A stretch of 55,726 nucleotides of DNA from positions 1 to 55,726 of IMG/VR virus record IMGVR_UViG_3300017938_000011, one strand, 5' to 3'. This DNA comes from a virus. Taxonomy: Duplodnaviria; Caudoviricetes. Both the position numbers and the translations under genes were made by a program. Positions 10,096-40,159 of the stretch are shown here, in pieces. The notes below the pieces were generated by a model. The model made no database searches. It had not been told where the DNA came from and saw only the letters and a list, made by a program, of their open reading frames with translations. Every line of letters starts with the position of its first letter. Position 1 is the first letter of the stretch.

Positions 10096-10307
10096 GGTTC
10101 CTTCGGCTTGTTCGTGTGCCCTTTGAAAAACTCTGGCATCGCTTCCGCGACGGTGCGGTTGAGGAATGGCTCTGGATCGTTAGTCGAGATTGCGACGCGG
10201 CTTCTCGCCATCCCAGCTTCGAACGCGCCAAATAGCTTCAGCGCGGCCGCAGCGATTCGGTAGTCGCGCGGGATGCGGAGCGAGGTCGAGTTCTCGATGA
10301 TCTGTTT
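10092..10307 (-). pseudogene. 3' remnant of a gene truncated by the IS1595 element
   Basis: Open frame KQIIENSTSLRIPRDY...KPKEP* begins at the element boundary with no start codon. Confidence 0.45.
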
Positions 10308-10322
10308 TATGCTTATCGGGTT

Positions 10323-11396
10323 TCAACATGCAGTGTCTAGCGGTTGATCGTCATCATGACTGACCTTTTGATGCTGCCACTTGCCGCTGTAGAGGCCGTC
10401 ATAGGTCGGGCTTTCACCGTTCGCGCCGATGCCCAAGAGGGAGCGGAAGGCGTTGAACGGGTAGAAGCGGCGATTGAAGCGGAAGGCAAATTCGTTGAGG
10501 TAGGCTTGAAGGTGCTTTGGCTCGACGCGCCCGTGATGGGTGCTTTGCAGCCATGCTTTGAGGTTGCTGAAAACAAGGTGGACGATGGGCAGGTATTCTT
10601 CCGCGACTTCGGGATTGCCACCTTCGACCACCGGCAGATGGGCATAGCCGCGTTTTTCGAGCGAATTATACGCGGGAGCCGCGTCGGTGATGACGATTGC
10701 GCCAATGGCGACGGCGGCTTCCACAAACCCGCAAAGAGCCTTTTCGGTACGATCTGGCACAATCTCGATACGAAGCCGCCCCGCGTATCGGCCGCCTCTC
10801 CGCATGGGCTTGTCGCCTTTCTTAGCTGCCCGCTGGCGGACTTCGACGGCAGCAATAATCAGGCATTTTTCATCGGCGTGGGGGCCTTTGCCCTTCCCGC
10901 GCGTCTTGCCGCCGATGTAGCACTCGTCAACCTCGACGTGATCGCTACGCGCCAGATTGCCGCCGATGGGATCGCGGTTAGGTCGCACCATGCCCGCCCG
11001 CAGCTTGTGCAGGATTTGGAAGGCGGTTTCGTAGCAGCCGACACCGACTTGCCGATGCAATTGCACCGCCGAAATGCCGGGTGTCATGCTCGAAACAAGA
11101 TAAGCGGACCAAAACCATGCCGTCAGGGACGTGTGGGTTCCTTCCATGACGGTTCCGACCGTGATGGAAGTTTGCTTTCGGCAGGCGCGGCAGGCCAGCA
11201 CCTTCGGCCGACTCGCCAAGCGCACCGGCTCGCCCTTTTCGTGGCAGTGCGGGCATTCAAAGCCCTTCAACCATTTCGCGCCTTCAAGCCAACGGGCACA
11301 CGCGGCATCGTCAGGAAAGAGCCGCTGGAAGTCTTTGAGAGATTTCGGGAAGGGCAGGTGTTCCCATTGATGAACGTCGGGGATGGCGGGCGACAT
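10323..11396 (-). CDS. IS1595-family DDE transposase
   Basis: N-terminal Zn ribbon (CPHC...CRAC), VEVDECYIGG, ITD, YLNEFAFRFNRR; stop lies inside the TIR. Confidence 0.95.
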   Translation of the reverse strand: MSPAIPDVHQWEHLPFPKSLKDFQRLFPDDAACARWLEGAKWLKGFECPHCHEKGEPVRLASRPKVLACRACRKQTSITVGTVMEGTHTSLTAWFWSAYLVSSMTPGISAVQLHRQVGVGCYETAFQILHKLRAGMVRPNRDPIGGNLARSDHVEVDECYIGGKTRGKGKGPHADEKCLIIAAVEVRQRAAKKGDKPMRRGGRYAGRLRIEIVPDRTEKALCGFVEAAVAIGAIVITDAAPAYNSLEKRGYAHLPVVEGGNPEVAEEYLPIVHLVFSNLKAWLQSTHHGRVEPKHLQAYLNEFAFRFNRRFYPFNAFRSLLGIGANGESPTYDGLYSGKWQHQKVSHDDDQPLDTAC

Positions 11397-11666
11397 CTAT
11401 CCGCTCACTTTTTGCCCTTCGGCTTCCGCAGTCGCACATGCATCGCAATAATCCCCAACAAGATCAGCGCCGCAGCACTCGCAAATTCCTTCTACTGGCG
11501 CATCCCACGCGCCGCGTGGCGACGGACAGCCCGCACCTTCACATTCTGGACACTTTCCAATATCGGTTTCGAGGCTAGGATCGTCCGGTTGCGGGTCGTG
11601 CCGCATGAGGCGACCGTCTATGCACCGGGTCTGGGTAGTATGGAAACTACGGTTTCGGCGGCTCAT
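11397..11666 (-). CDS. Passenger gene: Zn-finger-rich small protein
   Basis: CPEC, CECC and CDAC motifs; stop abuts the transposase ATG. Confidence 0.65.
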   Translation of the reverse strand: MSRRNRSFHTTQTRCIDGRLMRHDPQPDDPSLETDIGKCPECEGAGCPSPRGAWDAPVEGICECCGADLVGDYCDACATAEAEGQKVSG

Positions 11667-11669
11667 AAT

Positions 11670-11918
11670 TTAGGCCCCCGCGTGGATCGGATGACGAATG
11701 TCGTGACCACAGATCGCGCATTCGTCGATGGATTTGCCGACCATCGTCCCGGCAGCATGGCAATGGTCACGCTGTTCGGCGACGATCAGGGTCTTTTTCG
11801 TGGCTTCGTATGCCGCCTCAATGTGATCCATGATGATTTTGTCATCGGATGGCGCACGTTGCCGAATAGCCGCCCCAAGGTGGCCAAGGATGTTTTCAAG
11901 GTGCTGGACTTTCATCAT
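11670..11918 (-). CDS. Passenger gene: hypothetical protein
   Basis: 82 aa with CAICGH; GGAG RBS. Confidence 0.65.
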   Translation of the reverse strand: MMKVQHLENILGHLGAAIRQRAPSDDKIIMDHIEAAYEATKKTLIVAEQRDHCHAAGTMVGKSIDECAICGHDIRHPIHAGA

Positions 11919-11921
11919 GGC

Positions 11922-12347
11922 TCAGGCTCCAACACCGAATTGCCCATTATCGGCTCGGATTTGTTCGGCCTGTTTCTGGCGATCAGAGCACCAACCCCGC
12001 AGACCGTTGTCGATGATCCCGCCCCTTCCGATCAGCGACTCGACGTTGATCGAAGTGCTCGGGGCGTTGTTGGCATCGAAATGGAGCCAAGTTCCATCGC
12101 GACCGCAGTTAATCGACAGTCCGCAATCATCTATCGGGATAGTCGTGGCTTGTTCGATTTTGGCGGGACTGGCGGGCAGCGGCATCCAATGTGTCGGTTG
12201 CTCGTCAGCCGGGTAGGGCGAATAAGCCGGACCATTTGTGGCCCAACACCCTTGCTGCCGGTGCCAATGGCAAACGGTCATCCATTGGCCTGTGCAAGCA
12301 AGGAAACTGGACCCGTCTTTCGGTGCGCTCTCAATCAGTTTCCACAT
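11922..12347 (-). CDS. Passenger gene: DUF551-like protein
   Basis: WKLIESAPKDG...PTHWMPLP signature; AGGAG RBS. Confidence 0.8.
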   Translation of the reverse strand: MWKLIESAPKDGSSFLACTGQWMTVCHWHRQQGCWATNGPAYSPYPADEQPTHWMPLPASPAKIEQATTIPIDDCGLSINCGRDGTWLHFDANNAPSTSINVESLIGRGGIIDNGLRGWCSDRQKQAEQIRADNGQFGVGA

Positions 12348-12389
12348 CTTAGTCTCCTGTTAACTAAGGCCGTCCATCGGCCTAACCAT

Positions 12390-12418
12390 TATCTAGCACA
12401 GGTAGGTGCATGTGTCAA
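12390..12418 (-). promoter_or_regulatory. Inward-facing sigma70-like promoter in the E5 end
   Basis: TTGACA-17nt-TAGATA pointing into the passenger/transposase operon. Confidence 0.6.
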
Positions 12419-12431
12419 CCCGATAAGCATG

Positions 12432-12502
12432 AAACGAAATGCCTTGTCGGTCTCCCCGCGCTTCTCGGCGGCAATATCGACCACTTCCCGATGTCTACTC
12501 AC
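12432..12502 (-). pseudogene. 5' remnant of a small phage gene cut by E5
   Basis: GTG overlapping the upstream stop; SRHREVVDIAAEKRGETDKAFRF runs into the TIR. Confidence 0.5.
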
Positions 12503-13173
12503 GGCGCGATTTCCTCGCTCGGCTTTGAGCGTCCTGATACTTCTCGCTCCTCGCTCGCATATTTCTCCCGCAGCGCGCTGTCCGTCAGCGGCGCCTTCCA
12601 GGTCCGCGCCATCCGCGTCCCGCCTTGCGAGTAGAACGCCGTTAGCGTGACCCAGATGCCGTGCCGGCCACCGAAGTCGCCCCATTTCCACTCGCGGGGG
12701 TCGACGTCCCTCCCGGCCGCCCATTCCTTCATCGCCTCGTAGGACGGCGAATCGTCGCCGATGAAGACGTTCGCGAAGCATCCCGGCTCCCGCGGCGGCG
12801 GCTCGTAGTACCGCTCAGCCGGGCGGCGCGGCGCCTGCGCGAGGTTCCGCATCGTCTGCGTGGCCTCGTGGCACGCGCTCCTGACTTCGGCCAAGTTCGG
12901 TACCCACTTGACCCGGCTCTGGACGCCGGTCCGGGCGTCGGTGACGAAGTCGACGACGGCGCGCGCGAACTCGCTGAGCACCGCGGCGACGCCGGAAACG
13001 TAGATTTCAGGGTTGTTCACTTCGTCCTTTCGATAAGAGCCGAACATCAGTTCCGCCCGGCTCAGGCAATAGACTAGGTCGGGGCGCGAGTCTGAGCTCC
13101 CCGCGTTCGGCTTGCTCGGCAAGACGCCCGGCAGCGCGGCTTGCGCTTTTGTCATGTCCATTCGATCCTCCAT
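12499..13173 (-). CDS. Putative replication protein (helicase loader-like position)
   Basis: Follows a DnaT/O-like gene; VTDARTGV...WVPNLAEVRSAC; start uncertain. Confidence 0.55.
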   Translation of the reverse strand: MEDRMDMTKAQAALPGVLPSKPNAGSSDSRPDLVYCLSRAELMFGSYRKDEVNNPEIYVSGVAAVLSEFARAVVDFVTDARTGVQSRVKWVPNLAEVRSACHEATQTMRNLAQAPRRPAERYYEPPPREPGCFANVFIGDDSPSYEAMKEWAAGRDVDPREWKWGDFGGRHGIWVTLTAFYSQGGTRMARTWKAPLTDSALREKYASEEREVSGRSKPSEEIAP

Positions 13174-13390
13174 TTTGTTTTGCTACTCGACGCATCCAGC
13201 CCTTGAAGGCCATAGACCAGTTCGCTTTGCAGGCGACCTGCCGGTTACCGTTCGCCCCGGCCCAAAGGCGCATGTCCTCCGCCATGTCGTCGATCTGCGC
13301 GTCCGATAGATGCAAGACGCGATGACCATAGTCGCGATCATCGTTCGATGGCGACCACTCATCCGATAGCGTTGTTCCTCGCGCCATCAC
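13007..13390 (-). CDS. Stand-alone replication-initiator C-terminal (DnaT-like) domain
   Basis: RGTTLSDEWSP...KANWSMAFKGWMRR resembles the C-terminus of phage O-like initiators. Confidence 0.6.
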   Translation of the reverse strand: MMARGTTLSDEWSPSNDDRDYGHRVLHLSDAQIDDMAEDMRLWAGANGNRQVACKANWSMAFKGWMRRVAKQNGGSNGHDKSASRAAGRLAEQAERGELRLAPRPSLLPEPGGTDVRLLSKGRSEQP

Positions 13391-13899
13391 GCCGCCTCTG
13401 GCTGGATCTTAAATTCGACGCCGTTTTTGCGTAGCTCGGCTTTCGATAGTTCGTCGGCAAGCGAATTAAGGTCCCGACTAATCCACGTCCCGCGAAGCGC
13501 GCGGAACTTTTTGATCTTCTCGCGTGCAGCCTTCGCGTGCTCGGCATAGAAGCCGCCCTTGATTCTCCATTTTCCGAAACATTGTTGGATCACGAGGTTC
13601 GAATCGCCTTTGACCAAGATCAATTCCTTTGTCAACCCTTGCTCGATGAACCAATCAAGGACGGCATTGAAGGCGAGGTACTCGGCGACGTTGTTCGATG
13701 TCTGAGGCGAGGCCGGGATCATTCCCGAAGTTTGCCAAACGCGCGCGTTATTTTTGAAAATGACCGCTCCGTATCCCGCGGTCCCGCCAGGATTGCGCGG
13801 CTCGCAGCACCCGTCGAAAAAAGCAATATAGGCACCCATTGATTCGGCATACCGGACCGCATTTTCGTCTGTTCGTACTCGCGCCCGCCTTCGCTTCAT
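13387..13899 (-). CDS. rnhA: Ribonuclease HI
   Basis: FFDGCCEPRNPGG, SNNVAEY, GDSNLVI, RDLNSLADELS. Confidence 0.92.
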   Translation of the reverse strand: MKRRRARVRTDENAVRYAESMGAYIAFFDGCCEPRNPGGTAGYGAVIFKNNARVWQTSGMIPASPQTSNNVAEYLAFNAVLDWFIEQGLTKELILVKGDSNLVIQQCFGKWRIKGGFYAEHAKAAREKIKKFRALRGTWISRDLNSLADELSKAELRKNGVEFKIQPEAA

Positions 13900-14231
13900 T
13901 TAGCTCCCCTATCAGATAGCCGAGTCTTCAATGCGTCGATAGCAAAGTGCATCGTATGTTCAGTCAAGAGAATGCATGGCTTGTTTGTCGCCCTGAAATA
14001 ACGGTTGATCTGTTTGTGGTTTTTACGCATACCGCCGCGTCTTTTGATCTCGACCGTGCAGACTAAATCTCGGCTGTCTGAACGGAATACTGCAATATCA
14101 AACCGACAGTTGCGATACGAATACTCGCCTCGCACGATGTAATCTTCACCAAGAGCTTCCTTGAGAAGAGAGATTGCCTCAGCTTGAACTTCAAACTCTG
14201 ATTTTGGCTTGTTTTTGGCTATTTTCATCAC
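13896..14231 (-). CDS. PD-(D/E)XK nuclease-like protein
   Basis: GEY...RFDIAV...VEIK motif; lower GC. Confidence 0.7.
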   Translation of the reverse strand: MMKIAKNKPKSEFEVQAEAISLLKEALGEDYIVRGEYSYRNCRFDIAVFRSDSRDLVCTVEIKRRGGMRKNHKQINRYFRATNKPCILLTEHTMHFAIDALKTRLSDRGAK

Positions 14232-14562
14232 GTCCCCGCGCGCTTAGAGAGGCAACCTCGGACTCTAGTTTCTTAACCCTTCCTCGCCTACAAAAACTTA
14301 AAGGCAGGAAAGAAAAACCAAGGGAGGTCGGAACCTCCCACAATCAACCGAGGGCGTAAGCCTTTGCCGGTCATCCATGTTTGTCGCGCCCGACACCATC
14401 CGACGCCCATTCTACGGCTGGGCCAGACCGTACTCCTTTGTGGGCCGCCCGCAGGGTCATCCCTGCTGCGGTGTAATCCCGTTCGGTTTCCCTGCCGCGC
14501 ATGAACCCGCGAGCAGGCAGGCCCTTGGGACCTGACGTGCGCGATGGCGGCATGTGGTGGAA

Positions 14563-14591
14563 TTGACGGGCGTTACGAAAAATCGTACATA
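14563..14591 (+). promoter_or_regulatory. Antisense sigma70-like promoter
   Basis: TTGACG-17nt-TACATA, opposite to the operon. Confidence 0.55.
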
Positions 14592-14597
14592 CGCCCT

Positions 14598-14669
14598 CGA
14601 TCGCAACCCGCCGCCAAGCTAGATTGCGATCCGCCCGGCACGGAACCATCCCGGCCGGGCATTCTTTTT
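14598..14669 (+). ncRNA. Putative ~70-nt antisense RNA
   Basis: Promoter, hairpin GATCGCAA/TTGCGATC, then GCCCGGC/GCCGGGC terminator with ATTCTTTTT. Confidence 0.45.
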
Positions 14670-14930
14670 CTAAGCCGATTCGCTGCCATCGTTCCAGCCG
14701 CTAGACCTAGAGCTATTTTCCAAACCGTCGCTAGGGATAGATCTCCGCGCCAGTTCGGCGTCGATCATGGCGCGAATCAGTGAGTCTTCGGCCTTCACCG
14801 GGAACGAGGTCAGTCCCACCGGCGCCGTCCGCGGCTCGGAAGGGGAGCGGAACTCGAGGCGTTCCAGCGCCAGATCCCGCTTCGCCTTCGCCTTGCGAGC
14901 GGATTCTTTGGGGGAATAGCGACGAGTCAC
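14670..14930 (-). CDS. Hypothetical protein
   Basis: GTG start overlapping the upstream stop (MTRRYSPKES...), GGAGG RBS. Confidence 0.55.
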   Translation of the reverse strand: MTRRYSPKESARKAKAKRDLALERLEFRSPSEPRTAPVGLTSFPVKAEDSLIRAMIDAELARRSIPSDGLENSSRSSGWNDGSESA

Positions 14931-15163
14931 TTCTTTGCCTCCAGCTTCATCCGCTTCGTGCGGCTCGGGTTCGGATTGTTCGGCGTTATCGTCACCACCG
15001 CGTTGTTCTCGATCTCGAACATGTGGCCTTTGGCCTTCACCGTGCCGCTGGTGACGCCGGCGCAGATTGCTTGAATTTCCTTGCGGTCGCGGTCGAAGTT
15101 GAAGCCGCGGACGCGCTCGAGCCAGCGGATCAGGCAATGATCGGTGACGCGGAGCAGCTTCAT
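14927..15163 (-). CDS. Hypothetical protein
   Basis: VTDHCLIRWLERV motif; ATGA coupling. Confidence 0.7.
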   Translation of the reverse strand: MKLLRVTDHCLIRWLERVRGFNFDRDRKEIQAICAGVTSGTVKAKGHMFEIENNAVVTITPNNPNPSRTKRMKLEAKK

Positions 15164-15753
15164 GCGGCGATCCCGAATTTGTCGGCTTCATCACCCCTGA
15201 CGACCCAGCCGACACGTTGCTGGCGACCGAAGAGTTCAAGGCGCGGCCCGTCGCAATATCGTTCGACGCGCTCATAGAAACTCTCTGGTTTCCGGCTGTG
15301 CTCGCGCCGTGGCTCGATGATGACTTCGTGGACGCCGGCGTCGCGACGGACCGAGCGGCCGCGCTTGCCGATAAGGCAAAATTCCGCATTCTTGCGAGTC
15401 GTGAAACCTCCGCCGATCGATAGATCCGTCTTCAGGATGAAAAGCGACGCCGCGCGTGGGTTTAGCTTGATCCAGACGAATCCCATTCCGGATGGTTTGA
15501 AGCCCCAGGCCCTCATGATCGGCAGGTGGGCCCCGACGGCGAGCAGCGGCCCGGTGATCCAAAGGAAGAGCGCGGCGTTGTCCGCCGCATAGTCGCCGAC
15601 CGGGAGCCCCGCGATCTCTTCGATCATCATGCAGCGGTAATGCCGCCTGGCGTTCCTTCCCGGTTTCGCCTCACTGTTACTCTTGAAAAGGTAAGGTGGA
15701 TCAATGGCTAGGCAAGCGAACTGACTGCGTTGAAGTCCGTCGAACATTTGCAT
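15160..15753 (-). CDS. MT-A70-family adenine methyltransferase
   Basis: DPPY, LFLW, EHSRKP, RLELFGR. Confidence 0.92.
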   Translation of the reverse strand: MQMFDGLQRSQFACLAIDPPYLFKSNSEAKPGRNARRHYRCMMIEEIAGLPVGDYAADNAALFLWITGPLLAVGAHLPIMRAWGFKPSGMGFVWIKLNPRAASLFILKTDLSIGGGFTTRKNAEFCLIGKRGRSVRRDAGVHEVIIEPRREHSRKPESFYERVERYCDGPRLELFGRQQRVGWVVRGDEADKFGIAA

Positions 15754-15833: not shown

Positions 15834-16286
15834 TTAATCCCGCTGTTCGCTCTCGAAAACCTCAATTTGCGAGATTTCGACGCGGAGGCGCGGGTTTTCG
15901 GCGTACAATTTCACTGCCCGGCCATCTACGACCTGGACGTCGTCGGTCCACACTATGCCCTTCAAGGCGTCCATCTGCTTGATTATGTTGTCATAATCAG
16001 GCTTTACCGTCGGCCTTAGCGTTCCGGCCAGGGCGGCGTCTCGTTTCCGGCCGGACCAAGATGCGGGGACGGGCATGAAGGCTATCACTAACAGCCTCAG
16101 CGGCCCCGCCAGCGGGCCTTGCCCCTTCATGGCTACCTTGGCTGCCAAGGCAACCGCGCGCTGATAGGCGCGCGTCTCTGCGGGAGTGTAAATGGTTGCA
16201 AAAGGCTTCTTGCCCTTCGGGGTCACGACGCGGAGTCCGGTCCGCTGCCAGCCGACCGGCTCGCCATGAAGTTCGAAGGAAATCAT
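15834..16286 (-). CDS. rusA: RusA-family Holliday junction resolvase
   Basis: KPDYDNIIK, DALKGIVWTDDVQVV. Confidence 0.92.
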   Translation of the reverse strand: MISFELHGEPVGWQRTGLRVVTPKGKKPFATIYTPAETRAYQRAVALAAKVAMKGQGPLAGPLRLLVIAFMPVPASWSGRKRDAALAGTLRPTVKPDYDNIIKQMDALKGIVWTDDVQVVDGRAVKLYAENPRLRVEISQIEVFESEQRD

Positions 16287-27055: not shown

Positions 27056-29650
27056 CTAGCACGCAGTATTCGACGAAGCATTGGAGCCGATGTTGCCGTT
27101 GCACCGGCTGATCACGGCGCCGATGCTGTCGTTGTTGGTGTTAGATGTTATCAGATTGCCGTTGATGGCGATTGAGCCTAAGCCAGACGTTCCAATGCCG
27201 TAAGCGTTAGCGACGATTGTGCTACCCGAGATGACATAATTGCCGCCGCTGTCCGTCAGGCTTATTCCTGTACTAGAGTTGCTGGCAACGTGGGCGCCGA
27301 CGAACTTTGAATACGATCCGCCGGCTCCAGCACTGCCGGATTGTGTAGGGATACTAAATCCATTGCCTGTATTACCTGCCGACCAGCAACCAACACACTC
27401 CAAAAGGGCCATAGAATTGGTGCCGACGACCACTCCACCAGACGTGTTGCTATCAACATCGCTATTCGTGTTCATAAAGATTTCGCGGTTAGCAATCCCG
27501 CCAAGTGACGTTTCAATGGTTATTCCGTATGCGTTCAGAATTGAGCCAGCGGCAATACGGACGCCGCCCATACCGCCGCCGATTATAATCCCGCTATAAG
27601 CGCATCCCAAAATGATGCTGGCAGGATCAATATAAAATTCGGCGTTAGGAGCCGAGCTGTAGACGACAATCCCATTTCCGAGACAGTTATTGACATGCCA
27701 ATTACGAAGGCTGATTTCGCCAAGGCCGGCGCTGGAATTACCCGAAAACTGCGCGCCGCTCCAGATGTTGCTGTCCATCCAGATATTGCTAGACGTGAAA
27801 GGGCTGACACCTTGAGCAGTTAACATGTTGCCGCCGGTCGGCGTCCCGGAGTGAGTAAACCTCATATTATTTAATTGAAAATTTGTTATTGTATTTGTGC
27901 CATCGCCAATGCTCAGAATGCAATTGGTCGCTCCGGTCGCCTGCATATTGGTGCTGTATCCGCCACCATCAATCATGCCACCTGTGACCGCGCCAGTGAT
28001 CGTCGCGCAAGTGCCGATCGAATAGGTTCCCGCAGGCACGTGGCACCGCCCCCCAGCTGCAGCGGTATTGACGCAATCTTGCCAAGCCGTCGAACAATCG
28101 TGCCCAGACGTACCGCAGCCAGGGTCATGCACCTGCGGCGTATCGTATTGCGACTTGCCGCCGATTGAGAGAGTTCCAACCGCGAGATTGAGATTAGCAA
28201 TGTCGAATGTGCCATAAGTCGAAGTGCTGTAATTATACTCCTGGGCGTAACCAATGCCGTTGATGGAATCTATGTTCAAATAAGTGCCGCTATTCGGACT
28301 TGTAGGCAAGCTCACAGTATCGGCAATAAGAAACTCGCCGCTGCCGATGCCAACATAGCCGGAATTGTTGCTGGTGATGTTGACGCCACTGTAACTCCAC
28401 GGCGTGTTGATCGCACCACCACTCACCGAGAATCCGGTGCCGAGCGAGACTTGACTCAACGTGCCACTGTTGTTGGAGAGCAAATCGCCCGATGTGCCGC
28501 CGCCGATCGAGGTCACGCCGATCGTGATGCTTGATGCGGCCGCTCCGATCACCGTCAGCTTGCCGCTGACGACGACGATCGTCGAGTTGTCGGGATAGCC
28601 GCACCCGATCTGCGACGCCGTCATTGTTGTGCAGGAAATCACGCCGGTCGATATTGTCAGCGTCGAGCCGTCACCTTGTACGATGCCTTGCGCGGCCGAA
28701 GTGGCGATGGGGAGATATGCGGCACCGACCGTGCCGGAATTGATCTCGGAACCCGCGATCGACTTATTGGTCAGAGATTGCGTGTCGGTCGTGCCGACCA
28801 AAAGGCCGCTTGCCGGAAAAGTTTCGGCCTGCCCGCCGATCTCGAACGTGCCGGTAAAGTTCGCCGTGCCCGACACGGTTTCCCCGGCGATGGTAGGTGC
28901 GGTGGCAAGCACGACACTGCCGCTGCCGGTGACCGCGATCTGCGTCAGGCTCGGCCCGCTTCCCACGGCAAGAATATCGCCGGGCGTGCCGTTGATGACG
29001 CCGGTCGGAGAGCCGCCGCCGACGGTGACATTCGCCGCCGTCGCCGTAATCGAGCAACCGGGAGATGCGACGCCGAGCGTGCACGGCACGCCATTCACGT
29101 AAACGTAATCGAAGGCGAGGTCGGTGTTCGTAATGAGACCGGCCGCCGAGACAGAGCCAGTGAAGGTCGGGTTGGCGATCGTCGATCCGGAAGAAAGCAC
29201 CATCGCCCCGGTGCCGGTGACCGAGTTCGACAGCGTTACGCCGCCGTAAGTAATCGCGGCGGAAAAAGTTGCACCGTCGGAAAAAGTTTGTGGTGCTAAC
29301 CAACTATTCGCGTGCGACAGGTTGATGCCGAGATTGTTGCTACCGTCGACGGTGAGGCTGCTGTTGATGTTGAGCGAGAGTGTCCCGGCGCTGTAGTTGA
29401 GCGGCGCGTCCGTCGCCGTGACCGATTGAACCAGCGAGTTGTTGAGATAGTAACCGTCGCTCGCATTGAACGTGCCGGCGCCGGTGTTGTTCAATGATGA
29501 TGTTCCGGCGTTCACGCTGCCGTTCGGGTAGTAGATCAACGGCCCGTTCTGAACCCAAGGCTGCGTCGGTCCCGGTCCCGGCTGCGCCGAGGCGGCGGTT
29601 GCGAGCAGAGAAAAGATCAGCGCGAGGATCGTTCTCATCCGATTCACCAA
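27056..29650 (-). CDS. Tail fibre/spike with C-terminal beta-helix (pectin-lyase-like)
   Basis: G/S/T-rich shaft; DCSTAWQDCVN...VPAGTY and Asn-ladder repeats. Confidence 0.75.
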   Translation of the reverse strand: MVNRMRTILALIFSLLATAASAQPGPGPTQPWVQNGPLIYYPNGSVNAGTSSLNNTGAGTFNASDGYYLNNSLVQSVTATDAPLNYSAGTLSLNINSSLTVDGSNNLGINLSHANSWLAPQTFSDGATFSAAITYGGVTLSNSVTGTGAMVLSSGSTIANPTFTGSVSAAGLITNTDLAFDYVYVNGVPCTLGVASPGCSITATAANVTVGGGSPTGVINGTPGDILAVGSGPSLTQIAVTGSGSVVLATAPTIAGETVSGTANFTGTFEIGGQAETFPASGLLVGTTDTQSLTNKSIAGSEINSGTVGAAYLPIATSAAQGIVQGDGSTLTISTGVISCTTMTASQIGCGYPDNSTIVVVSGKLTVIGAAASSITIGVTSIGGGTSGDLLSNNSGTLSQVSLGTGFSVSGGAINTPWSYSGVNITSNNSGYVGIGSGEFLIADTVSLPTSPNSGTYLNIDSINGIGYAQEYNYSTSTYGTFDIANLNLAVGTLSIGGKSQYDTPQVHDPGCGTSGHDCSTAWQDCVNTAAAGGRCHVPAGTYSIGTCATITGAVTGGMIDGGGYSTNMQATGATNCILSIGDGTNTITNFQLNNMRFTHSGTPTGGNMLTAQGVSPFTSSNIWMDSNIWSGAQFSGNSSAGLGEISLRNWHVNNCLGNGIVVYSSAPNAEFYIDPASIILGCAYSGIIIGGGMGGVRIAAGSILNAYGITIETSLGGIANREIFMNTNSDVDSNTSGGVVVGTNSMALLECVGCWSAGNTGNGFSIPTQSGSAGAGGSYSKFVGAHVASNSSTGISLTDSGGNYVISGSTIVANAYGIGTSGLGSIAINGNLITSNTNNDSIGAVISRCNGNIGSNASSNTAC

Positions 29651-37712: not shown

Positions 37713-39362
37713 TTAGTTTCCTGTTTTCAGTCCGTTGACGATGGTGGCGACATTCGCGCCGGTCGTGTTGTGAATTTCGACCTTGACCGAACTGTCTCGA
37801 TATTGATTGTAGCTGGCCGCGCGTTCCAGATAACGCTGCGTCTCCGCCGGCAGCACGGCGGGATTGTCGCCAGCCCTTTTGAATCGGTTCGCGGCGCCGG
37901 GACCGGCGTTGTAAGCGGCGAGAACTTCGGCGATGTTGCCACCATATTGCCGGTAAAGATCGTTCAAAATCGCTTGGGCAACTTTCTCGTTATAGGCCGG
38001 ATCAGTTAGCCGCGAGGGATCGTACCCGTATTGCCGCGCGGTGCCCGGCATGATCTGGTAACGCCCGATCGCACCTTTCGGACTGATGGCGGTGTCACCG
38101 CTACCTTCCAATTTACGAACCAAACCTAGAAGATCAGATGATGTATGGAGCGCGCGATCGAGAAAACTGCCTTTTTCAATAGTCGGATCAAAGGTGCCGA
38201 GTGGTCCCAGATCGAGCAATGGCTTATCGGAGAAGATGCGACGGCCTCCGGCATCCTCAGTCTTGGGAAGCTTCCCGGTGATCCATGTAGAAAAGTCGTC
38301 GATAACAGTCCCAAATTTTTTGACCGTTTGCTTGAAGTCGTCGCCACCGATATAGCCTGCGAAAGCCTTCAAAGCGTCTCCCGATTCATCGACCCATTTC
38401 TTGAGTTCTGGGACACCAAACAAAGAACTGATGAGTTCCTGGATGCCTTCCGAAAGTTTTTTCAGACCAGGAGCGAGCGGAACGAGACCTTGGATGAACG
38501 TGTTTTTGATGCTCTTGCCGGAGAAATCTATGTACATCGTCAAATCTTGCCACTTCATCAACGTGTCGTCGTCGATTTTCAGCTTCCGCGCGTAGTCGGC
38601 TTGCGTCGCCAGAGTCCTTTCAAATTCCGCGGGCCTAGTCCGTTTCAATCGTTCGAGATCGAACTCCGAGACGCCTTGCAGACGATAGGCTTGGATCGTC
38701 TGAGCGAACAATCTCGGATCGGTCCTGTCGGCGAGTTCCTTTAATTTGCGAAGATAGGAGATGCCGAGTTCTGCGGTATCGCCACCCGGCCGCACACCGA
38801 GACTGAGCAGTCCGACGCTTTTGGTGATGTCGAATCTCGCTCCCGCCACGGCTTCTAAAAAGCCGGGACCGACGAAACGTTCGGTGCCGGTCTGGAACGC
38901 CTCTTGGCCGCCAAATGTCGTTCCCAAGCCAAGCGCGGAGCGGCGGCCAGCAGCGGCGCTGGCGGCGAGGCGGTCGATCCCGAATAAGCCGCCCGCACCG
39001 ATTAAGCCGGAAACTATCCCGGTGATTCCGCTCCAACGAATCAGCGAAATCGTCGCTTCCTTGATGTTCGTCGAGAAATTCTTGGTGTACGTGGACATCT
39101 CGCGCCAGAACCGGGACGACCGTTCCAGATGCGCGTTTGTGGCGTTTTGCTCGGCCGCCGCGATGCGCGCGAGGTCGTTCTGCGCCAGGATGGCGGCGGC
39201 GATCGCCTCGAAGCCCTTCCGCTGCGCCTGGATCTCCTTGGTCGCGGCGGCCCAAGCGCCAGGAGCTTTCTCTAAAGTTTTTTGATATTTTTCATAGAGA
39301 TTTGCAAAATTTTTGAACGCCGCGTCATCGACCTGAACGTCTATTATACTTTTGACGGCCAT
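37713..39362 (-). CDS. Tape measure-like protein with C-terminal SLT lytic transglycosylase
   Basis: Helical N-terminus; LEGSG...AISPKGAIGRYQIMPGTA, LAAYNAGPG. Confidence 0.85.
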   Translation of the reverse strand: MAVKSIIDVQVDDAAFKNFANLYEKYQKTLEKAPGAWAAATKEIQAQRKGFEAIAAAILAQNDLARIAAAEQNATNAHLERSSRFWREMSTYTKNFSTNIKEATISLIRWSGITGIVSGLIGAGGLFGIDRLAASAAAGRRSALGLGTTFGGQEAFQTGTERFVGPGFLEAVAGARFDITKSVGLLSLGVRPGGDTAELGISYLRKLKELADRTDPRLFAQTIQAYRLQGVSEFDLERLKRTRPAEFERTLATQADYARKLKIDDDTLMKWQDLTMYIDFSGKSIKNTFIQGLVPLAPGLKKLSEGIQELISSLFGVPELKKWVDESGDALKAFAGYIGGDDFKQTVKKFGTVIDDFSTWITGKLPKTEDAGGRRIFSDKPLLDLGPLGTFDPTIEKGSFLDRALHTSSDLLGLVRKLEGSGDTAISPKGAIGRYQIMPGTARQYGYDPSRLTDPAYNEKVAQAILNDLYRQYGGNIAEVLAAYNAGPGAANRFKRAGDNPAVLPAETQRYLERAASYNQYRDSSVKVEIHNTTGANVATIVNGLKTGN

Positions 39363-39463
39363 CTAAAGCCCCCGCGCATAACGTTGCCGGAATTGATGGG
39401 CGTCGTCGAAGTCCAGCCCGATCTGCTTGGCGAACTCGCCGAAGCCTTCGTTCGCCACCCAAC

Positions 39464-40159
39464 TCAATGCGGCAGCAATGCAGGTCTGCCTTCCGCGGGC
39501 GCATTCGCAGGATCCGGTTTGTGCGCCGCAGACGCAGACGCCGGTTCGCCAGAACTGGCGGTCGCGGTCGACGTCCCCAAGGAACTCGCGAAGGCCGTAG
39601 CGTTCAATGGCGAGAGTCGCGCGTCCCAAAGGTCCGCCACCGCCTCGAGCATCTGCTTGCGCGGCTCGCGGGGCAATGTGGCAGAAGTCGCAATAAAAAA
39701 AAGGACGGCGTTCTCGACCTCCGCCTTGTCTTCCGAATCGAGCTTCTTCTGCGCGACTGCGACTTCGAGCGGGATGGCGTGCCAGCCTTTTTCTGTTGGA
39801 ACAATCACGTTCGTCAAACGCCTGATTTCCTCGACGAGTCCTTTGTCGACGCCGTCGTCTCCGTCCCAAGCGTTCGACGCCATCGCGATGTTTTTCAAGA
39901 TGCGCATGGCTTTCGCCGGTCCAGCGGTAACGCCGAGACCGAGGCCAAAGCATCCGGAATATGTCTGCGCGAGGATGATCTCGTACTTTTCCAGAACCTC
40001 GCCAGCGAGCGGGACGGAGTGAACCCATGCGATGACCGTCCGCGTCATGACCGGCTTACCGTTCTTCGTTTCTGGCTTTCCGTCAGAGCCGAACTTGGCG
40101 ATTTCCTCACCGTAAATAGGGACTACAAAATTCAGATGCCGGTTGATCTTCAGCCCCAC
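39464..40159 (-). CDS. Tail assembly chaperone; -1 frameshift form extends to 39363
   Basis: Between tube and tape measure; slippery CTT-TTT-TTT at 39695-39703; -1 frame ends 1 nt before the TMP ATG. Confidence 0.75.
   Translation of the reverse strand: MGLKINRHLNFVVPIYGEEIAKFGSDGKPETKNGKPVMTRTVIAWVHSVPLAGEVLEKYEIILAQTYSGCFGLGLGVTAGPAKAMRILKNIAMASNAWDGDDGVDKGLVEEIRRLTNVIVPTEKGWHAIPLEVAVAQKKLDSEDKAEVENAVLFFIATSATLPREPRKQMLEAVADLWDARLSPLNATAFASSLGTSTATASSGEPASASAAHKPDPANAPAEGRPALLPH

Follow-up and report, generated by a model that had tools for sequence, protein, structure and literature searches.

A conserved convergent small RNA gene ahead of a candidate antisense-controlled replication operon in a tailed phage

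Plasmid countertranscripts, among them CopA/CopT of plasmid R1, the attenuation RNAs of pT181 and pIP501, RNA I of ColE2 and the countertranscript RNA of the alphaproteobacterial repABC plasmids, are small, constitutive and rich in hairpins. They are complementary to the 5' leader of a replication mRNA, their variable loops are specificity determinants, and the two promoters stand face to face. A predicted small RNA (sRNA) gene that resembles them lies in the tailed phage record IMGVR_UViG_3300017938_000011, a complete virus record of 55,726 bases that is rated 100% complete and labelled 'linear'; this whole stretch is called the window below. The gene is found at one end of a non-coding tract in front of replication genes, and we give about an even chance to the view that the tract opens a self-contained replication operon under antisense control. 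Judged by analogy, the element appears to be a known kind of control in a new form, for which the plasmid countertranscripts appear to be the closest mechanistic analogues and pO/oop of bacteriophage lambda the closest phage analogue. In PMC3985674, oop is described as a short counter-transcript made from pO just upstream of gene O, and the activity of pO modulates replication. The same source (PMC3985674) states that oop was once proposed as a primer and was later shown to be antisense to cII.

The central features of the locus, with lengths in nucleotides (nt), amino acids (aa) and base pairs (bp) and with ORF for open reading frame, are these:

14563-14591, plus strand: promoter of the predicted sRNA (-35 TTGACG at 14563-14568, 17-nt spacer, -10 TACATA at 14586-14591)
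14598-14670, plus strand: predicted antisense sRNA of about 72 nt, its ends inferred (hairpin 1 at 14599-14631, terminator hairpin at 14633-14660, U-run at 14665-14669)
14667-14696, minus strand: putative sense promoter of the leader (-35-like TGGAAC at 14691-14696, 18-nt spacer, -10-like TAGAAA at 14667-14672)
14232-14669 (438 nt): non-coding tract between the 87-aa ORF (14670-14933, minus) and the 111-aa gene (13896-14231, minus)

The predicted sRNA folds with a minimum free energy of -33.3 kcal/mol (z -4.11), and none of 200 shuffles is as good. A simple consensus scan of the window listed neither its promoter nor its terminator, the promoter being missed because its -10 box lacks the final T, and without relatives both signals could be due to chance. 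The case for them comes from reading of the sequence, from folding and, above all, from conservation in 10 further distinct loci. Relatives were gathered by searches with the 127-aa protein encoded downstream and with the RNase H, which yielded viral contigs and one genome contig, the distant locus L015. Eight protein-found loci (the window, L001-L005, L009 and L012) encode a protein of the 127-aa type that is 61-97% identical, and in all eight TTGACG is followed by TA after exactly 17 nt. Each of the eight also has a small gene upstream on the opposite strand, a hairpin 1 whose stem varies by paired changes, and a G+C hairpin with a U-run.

A covariance model built from these eight loci, R1, gives the window sRNA a score of 69.5 bits and was used with a degenerate pattern for scans of viral and metagenome DNA. 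The viral pattern scan returned seven stretches, which are six known contigs and L019. The metagenome pattern scan returned 20 stretches, of which 12 are unrelated and mostly belong to one coding family, while 8 pass R1; six of these are copies of known loci, including the window-type L023 and L027, and two are new (L024 and L032). There are thus 11 distinct sRNA loci: the window, L001-L005, L009, L012, L019, L024 and L032. L019, L024 and L032 were found by a pattern requiring the promoter and terminator motifs, and their promoter is thus pre-selected. On the 11-sequence alignment, which is model-based and fitted to R1, 88.4% of cells are paired compared with 70.1% in shuffles, and 12 of 18 pairs are changed on both sides. 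The covariation score is 0.52 compared with 0.198 in shuffles (none of 500 reaches it), controls with slid partners score 0.02-0.09, and both hairpins covary strongly. The loop and stem of hairpin 1 differ among relatives and the loop lengths vary. The sRNA gene has been kept while both of its flanks were exchanged, the upstream gene varying and the downstream leader being replaced in the window and L019. R1 indicates that the sRNA is absent from the three most distant protein relatives (L013, L014 and L015); it has no match in the genome of L015 itself, and across 151 genomes of the class of L015 it gives one weak match (E 7.6e-4). These data give good comparative support, with 11 loci and strong covariation, for a small RNA family that has no match in Rfam release 15 in the DNA scanned. 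An extra hairpin that brackets the sRNA promoter is seen in sense-strand folds of most loci; the comparison of mean stems within and across sequences (6.5 and 5.4) is a weak test of it.

GANTC, which we take to be the CcrM methylation motif, is about fourfold enriched in the sRNA block, 14563-14700 in the window and its counterpart in 10 loci (19 in 1498 nt compared with 373 in 120626 nt outside, uncorrected for relatedness). It is found just past the U-run of the sRNA in 9 of the 11 loci and in the spacer of the sRNA promoter in 6 of the 11. Adenine methyltransferase genes are present in these phages, and L012 has GcrA.

An earlier note on this DNA had described a hairpin-dense non-coding tract of 430 nt in the place of an initiator, with a counter-oriented promoter at 14563-14591 and an antisense RNA of about 70 nt with two hairpins. 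The promoter, TTGACG-N17-TACATA, is present and kept across loci, and the gene for the predicted transcript is upheld by its fold, its 11 loci and its covariation. The structure of the RNA, whose conservation had been put forward as a check, is conserved. The non-coding character of the tract also stands, whereas its hairpin density does not: the whole tract folds with z -3.06, but the 251 nt outside the sRNA complement (14312-14562, sense strand) have a z of -0.70, and 50 of 200 shuffles are as good. A coding tract was rejected, the small ORFs inside 14232-14669 having no Pfam or PHROG family. A decayed initiator head was also rejected, as tblastn of 55 proteins found nothing at E < 1 and the tract holds no trace of one. 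A type I toxin-antitoxin system was rejected, since there is no hydrophobic small ORF preceded by a Shine-Dalgarno sequence. Rfam (release 15) has no match on the window at gathering level and only chance-level matches over 14100-14800 at E <= 10; on the relatives it gives one tRNA only for L001-L005 and nothing at E <= 1 for L032, L003 and L009. The window has no tRNA or tmRNA, no match to 12400-15200 turned up when 50,697 phage records were searched by blastn, and no iterons or repeated boxes were found around the hairpin block.

Conservation extends 48 nt past the 3' end of the sRNA in all 11 loci, when anchored on the A-run of the sense strand. This block contains GGCTKS at the -35 place, GANTC (9/11) and TAsAAA at the -10 place with a spacing of 16-18 nt, and in the window the -10-like box holds the stop codon of the 87-aa ORF and runs into the A-run. 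It is not coding conservation because the genes upstream of the sRNA block differ from locus to locus (methyltransferases, GcrA, phrog_8252, the 87-aa ORF). On balance the block is probably the promoter of a sense leader, which would start near 14661. Given that start, the sRNA could pair without a mismatch along the first ~64 nt of the leader. With about 80 bp between their -10 boxes, the two predicted promoters point toward one another, and this convergent layout matches the geometry of the plasmid countertranscripts and of ColE1 RNA I/RNA II. The conserved unit would be the convergent promoter pair with an overlap of about 70 bp, heading the only recognisable replication genes. Two of these are conserved:

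13007-13390, minus strand: 127-aa headless YdaU/DUF1376-type replication protein (C-terminal, DnaT-like region only)
12499-13173, minus strand: 224-aa conserved partner protein, whose gene shares 167 nt with the 127-aa gene but is read in another frame

Nine loci reach far enough downstream (L019 and L024 end too early), and in all nine the 127-aa gene and its 224-aa partner follow the sRNA. The match of the 127-aa protein to phrog_1408, 'replication initiation protein', falls in the C-terminal third of that family (positions 189-281 of 302, 1.2e-6), and five of six family members match. In 53 longer relatives the part that aligns with it is the C-terminal region (E down to 2e-32); 21 of these relatives carry PF07120 (DUF1376) and 3 carry PF13730 (HTH_36), and 1 also carries PF17948 (DnaT). 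The 127-aa protein has no Pfam match, DUF1376 included, and the N-terminal parts leave no tblastn trace. These homologies confirm a headless initiator that corresponds to the C-terminal region of YdaU/DUF1376 proteins, in agreement with the DnaT-like domain without an N-terminal HTH that had been noted before. The label 'DnaT-like' comes through family members and not from a direct match, the Pfam DnaT model finding only 1 of 6 members, and that one not significantly (E 0.69). L013 and L014 have a full-length DUF1376 protein at the syntenic place and no sRNA, and L015 has a 180-aa form without the DUF1376 head and without the sRNA. The structure model of the 127-aa protein is poor, with a predicted local distance difference test score of 48.5 that is too low for structure search.

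The 224-aa protein is conserved in 7 loci but falls into no Pfam or PHROG family. Its model has no match among PDB folds at E <= 0.001 and no named match in Foldseek, and a search of 5.8 billion proteins gave 2 matches only. It had been called loader-like, and this was not borne out: IstB/DnaC (PF01695) has no match in six frames, no Walker A motif was seen by eye, and PDB profiles gave nothing useful. The leads toward a helicase loader (G39P, lambda P) are faint, namely G39P in 2 of 7 members (E 0.075) and protein-atlas neighbours at 0.88. The overlap of the two genes at 13007-13173 is kept in other loci (L003:4218-4375 and L005:4227-4384, ~150-170 nt in different frames); it may be a true gene overlap or the sign of a frameshift fusion product.

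The complete record has zero six-frame matches to DUF1376 (PF07120), DnaB_C, IstB (PF01695) and Phage_rep_O, and the block at 12499-14669 is therefore its only recognisable replication module. A conventional initiator elsewhere in the genome, which the earlier note had named as a refutation of its idea, was not found by these six-frame searches. Pfam and PHROG scans of 40 further ORFs revealed no polymerase, primase or helicase.

The leader that would run from the sense promoter exists in two versions, and the parts of each are as follows:

14340-14562, minus strand: window-specific part of the leader, non-coding and not alignable to the leader of the relatives
14312-14339, minus strand: terminator-like site, a 7-bp G+C-rich stem with a 4-nt loop (14322-14339), then UUGGUUUUUC
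14232-14311, minus strand: spacer richer in A+T, in which the 111-aa gene has its ribosome-binding site
L003:3474-3810: leader of the relatives' type
L005:3485-3840: leader of the relatives' type
L009:490-860: leader of the relatives' type
L001:3684-4010: leader of the relatives' type
L002:2350-2650: leader of the relatives' type
L032:728-1034, minus strand: leader of the relatives' type
L012:1995-2330: leader of the relatives' type
L004:3608-4000: leader of the relatives' type

Eight relatives share a conserved structured leader RNA of ~180-300 nt that extends from the sRNA promoter to the ribosome-binding site of the next gene. GNRA-type tetraloops are visible in its alignment, and 13 of 31 pairs are changed on both sides in the 8 sequences (0 of 500 shuffles). 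A model built from seven of these leaders with L004 held out, R2, recovers L004 at 30 bits. The relatives' leader is thus a second conserved structured RNA, and it has no match to a curated (Rfam) family. Homology of the window leader to it was rejected, since R2 is blank in the tract and in L019, L023 and L027 and the alignment fails beyond the -35 box. R2 also has a weak match at 28848-29000 (minus) inside the 864-aa ORF at 27056-29650 (16.8 bits, rough E 4e-4), which is probably due to chance.

The window leader is otherwise found only in L023 and L027, which do not differ from it at all over 12565-15124 (100% identity) and so are uninformative on covariation. A perfect 10-nt inverted repeat (I16) pairs 14349-14358 with 14590-14599 across 231 nt and closes the window-specific leader domain. 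The resulting 10-bp long-range helix has a probability of 0.92-0.98 in the free leader and of ~0.3 when the sRNA target is masked. A T-run comparable to that of the terminator-like site is absent from the relatives' leaders in 6 of 8. The number of terminator-like sites found by a simple scan, 10 compared with 7.3 +/- 2.8 in shuffles, is not above chance. Compared with an L001-like ancestor, the family leader has given way in the window to another leader, a terminator and a nuclease gene.

That nuclease gene is located in a variable slot between the sRNA and leader on one side and the conserved genes on the other. In the window the slot holds two genes:

13896-14231, minus strand: 111-aa probable PD-(D/E)XK nuclease, cargo of this phage lineage only
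13387-13899, minus strand: 170-aa RNase H, cargo in 2 of 9 loci

The slot is empty in L032, holds small ORFs in L002, L003 and L005 and two ORFs in L012, and contains an RNase H gene in L001 and a helicase gene in L009. The helicase, encoded at L009:752-3004, is a 750-aa protein of the SNF2 family (SNF2-rel_dom 4.4e-30, Helicase_C 3.9e-17). The RNase H of the window, which had been recognised before, exceeds the Pfam cut-offs (RVT_3 7e-14, 52.2 bits against 21.6; RNase_H 27.3 bits against 25.8) and belongs to phrog_531. Its four acidic residues were seen by eye. The L001 copy is 88% identical, and the other seven loci do not have the gene. The assignment of the 111-aa protein as a PD-(D/E)XK nuclease held in part: a D...ExK motif is seen by eye and its protein-atlas neighbours all belong to the PD-(D/E)XK clan (scores 0.86-0.90), but its Pfam matches are below cut-off (HSDR_N_2 4.8e-4, 20.6 bits against 25; NucS_C 9.4e-3, 16.4 against 24). 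The gene is not found in L001-L005, L009, L012 or L032 and has no relative in the viral contig collection, and its G+C content at third codon positions is 0.47 compared with 0.64-0.86 for the genes around it. The gene seems to have been acquired recently, along with the window-specific leader. RNase H and the nuclease are to be seen as variable cargo because they are present in only 2 of 9 and 1 of 9 loci.

Countertranscript control of the operon is the most economical reading of these observations. The signals, their conservation and covariation, the gene homologies and the linkage are features of the DNA itself; the two transcripts and their ends are predictions, and so are the direction and mechanism of any effect. 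The sense promoter with its -10 at 14667-14672 would start a long untranslated leader and continue into the cargo genes and then the 127-aa and 224-aa genes. The convergent plus-strand promoter at 14563-14591, about 80 bp downstream, would yield the two-hairpin countertranscript of ~72 nt. As with plasmid countertranscripts and lambda pO/oop, pairing of the two folded RNAs would lower the output of the replication genes, and collision of the convergent polymerases would do likewise. Together, pairing and collision would set the timing or the amount of phage replication. Differences in hairpin 1 among the relatives would make the control phage-specific. In the phage of the window the terminator-like hairpin at 14322-14339 would make downstream expression dependent on read-through.

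Several results weigh against this view. Strand bias is absent from the sRNA helices (10 G-U and 7 A-C), and the strand is therefore assigned from the promoter and terminator signals. The putative sense promoter is a moderate match only to the sigma-70 consensus, with TGGAAC at -35 and an 18-nt spacer in the window. Attenuation that depends on the sRNA shows no effect in equilibrium folds: in folds ending at the U-tract the terminator hairpin has a probability of ~1 with the sRNA target masked or not. Occlusion of the ribosome-binding site by the sRNA is likewise not seen in such folds, masking having changed accessibility by at most 0.07 in all 6 loci compared. These equilibrium models thus reveal no structural switch. 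The replication gene is 290 to ~2500 nt downstream of the sRNA, which for this reason may control the first gene of the slot and not the replication genes. The association with the headless gene is partly circular, eight loci having been retrieved via the protein, and among the three loci found by the DNA pattern only L032 is long enough to show that gene. Duplex-triggered cleavage, polymerase collision and co-transcriptional effects are possible routes for the signal.

If the sRNA controls the module, the copy-control logic of plasmid countertranscripts would operate in a tailed phage, probably of Alphaproteobacteria. The sRNA family is tied to an unusual replication module with a YdaU-type protein that lacks its N-terminal domain, and a literature search at the level of listings and abstracts yielded no account of an sRNA associated with phage replication genes of the YdaU type. 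A fragment of ~2.3 kilobases would be a compact test case both for RNA control of phage replication and for the R-loop idea that is discussed below.

The likeness to the plasmid countertranscripts lies in a predicted hairpin-rich sRNA directed against the leader of a replication gene, in variable loops and in face-to-face promoters, and an alphaproteobacterial host range is plausible. The locus differs in that no Rfam countertranscript family is matched at gathering level, or at E <= 10 over 14100-14800, and in belonging to a tailed phage with a long leader whose 3' part is exchangeable. It also shows no terminator or ribosome-binding-site switch that depends on the sRNA in silico. As in lambda, a short RNA of two hairpins, which has a promoter and an intrinsic terminator to itself, is directed against an early operon immediately upstream of replication genes; the transcript is ~77 nt for oop and a predicted ~72 nt here, the latter from signals, fold and conservation in silico. 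However, oop overlaps the 3' end of cII, whereas the sRNA stops at the upstream stop codon in the window or 25-60 nt after it in the relatives. pO abuts the start of gene O, while here a leader of at least 290 nt separates the sRNA from the next gene and a dedicated sense promoter seems to start inside the overlap. The replication protein carries the YdaU C-terminal region and is not lambda O. On 1.8 kilobases of lambda (38000-39800) the best R1 match is a minus-strand stretch with a hairpin and a U-run (8.0 bits, E 0.24), which is presumably the place of oop, although the feature table of the lambda record does not list oop. The likeness is one of architecture and not shown descent because R1 gives only 8 bits.

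The earlier note had favoured RNA-primed initiation of the ColE1 kind. In such a scheme the leader RNA would persist as an RNA-DNA hybrid, with RNase H either cutting it back to a primer or keeping the displaced strand stable. The host helicase would be put in place there by the headless DnaT-like protein together with its partner, and the sRNA would block the hybrid as RNA I does in ColE1. Some background makes this attractive: replication of ColE1, like replication that depends on R-loops, is served by the PriA-DnaT primosome, and transcripts prime the origins of T4 and T7. The layout would also fit, with the predicted sRNA directed against the 5' end of a non-coding sense RNA of ~345 nt from its inferred start to the terminator. 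A conserved promoter-like block is found past the antisense terminator in all 11 loci, but its match to the consensus is moderate. The RNase H gene adjoins the tract in the window and L001, the replication protein is without its N-terminal, presumably origin-binding domain, and no helicase, loader or other initiator family is found in a record rated complete. The role of E. coli DnaT as a primosome adaptor (PMC4132743) would suit the scheme as well. However, RNase H is present in only 2 of 9 loci and is unlinked across the relatives, and the nuclease is present in 1 of 9. No conserved preprimer is found: the part of the leader outside the target has a z of -0.70 and no diverged homologue, and the relatives have another RNA as their leader, which stops right at the ribosome-binding site of the gene that follows, as expected of an mRNA leader. 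There is no Rfam RNAI match, two conserved protein genes follow, unlike in ColE1, and the direct Pfam DnaT match is confined to the one weak member mentioned above. RNA-primed initiation is thus not supported and an R-loop origin is unlikely; it keeps some appeal in this phage, but its supposedly defining parts are exactly those that are not conserved. Taken as a whole, what the earlier note had seen holds for the most part: it was confirmed for the antisense gene, the RNase H and the headless protein and not for hairpin density or the loader. Its alternative, an antisense-attenuated leader, fares better in that an antisense-controlled leader is the better reading, with the sRNA gene heading the headless-gene block in 9 of 9 loci, eight of them retrieved via that protein, but the dependence of the terminator on the sRNA is not seen in folding.

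The sRNA could also be an oop-like or immunity RNA whose target is elsewhere, such as the 3' end of the upstream transcript, a phage or host RNA in trans, or superinfecting relatives, and its position before the replication genes would then be inherited and not functional. Its size, two-hairpin build and position are those of lambda oop, which acts on the upstream cII and not on O/P (PMC3985674), and the divergence of the loop and stem of hairpin 1 between relatives is as expected of specificity determinants. Against this, the sRNA reaches no further than the stop codon of the gene upstream, that gene differs between loci, and a duplex scan of both strands of the 55.7-kilobase genome gave a best value of -67 kcal/mol with the background near -60 and nothing above background. 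This explanation is improbable, if a little less so than an R-loop origin. The hairpins might instead act as DNA, as an origin or a single-strand site of the primosome-assembly type, with TTGACG and the A/T run as protein-binding or unwinding elements. Pairing that is equally good on both strands, the place of the block directly upstream of the replication module and its fourfold enrichment in GANTC would fit such a site. An invariant -35 box, TA at exactly 17 nt and a G+C hairpin with a U-run are nevertheless those of a standard small transcription unit, no iterons or repeated boxes surround the block, and varying loop lengths would be unusual for a protein-binding palindrome; a role as DNA is very unlikely. 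A bolder idea, also unlikely though slightly less so than that last one, is that RNA has replaced the origin-recognition head of the YdaU-type initiator. The leader transcript, as an R-loop or as a protein-bound structured RNA, would mark the origin, and the convergent sRNA with its GANTC-rich promoter region would provide replication-coupled control of copy number and incompatibility. If true, this would place a plasmid-style, RNA-governed replicon inside a tailed temperate phage.

The candidate antisense-controlled operon is part of a run of minus-strand genes from ~17243 down to 8480. Upstream of the tract lie the following:

15834-16286, minus strand: RusA-like resolvase
15160-15753, minus strand: MT-A70 methyltransferase
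between the MT-A70 methyltransferase and the 87-aa ORF, minus strand: 78-aa phrog_8252 protein
14670-14933, minus strand: 87-aa ORF without a family, whose GTG start overlaps the stop of the 78-aa gene

The 87-aa ORF is a non-conserved neighbour of the module. Exonuclease VIII-like and RecT-like genes are on the opposite strand from 17743. After the tract the gene order is the 111-aa gene, the 170-aa RNase H gene, the 127-aa gene, the 224-aa gene, DUF551, an IS1595 transposase and a ParB-methyltransferase. A host in Alphaproteobacteria is suggested because the relative L012 has a GcrA gene and L015, the only match in genome contigs, comes from an alphaproteobacterial metagenome-assembled genome. 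The IS1595-family transposase gene is located in the early operon at 10323-11396 (minus) and encodes DDE_Tnp_IS1595 (7.4e-33) and a zinc ribbon. In the near-identical metagenome copy L027, ~370 nt are found in place of 10096-12529 of the window, and the IS1595 element and its neighbours are for that reason a recent difference.

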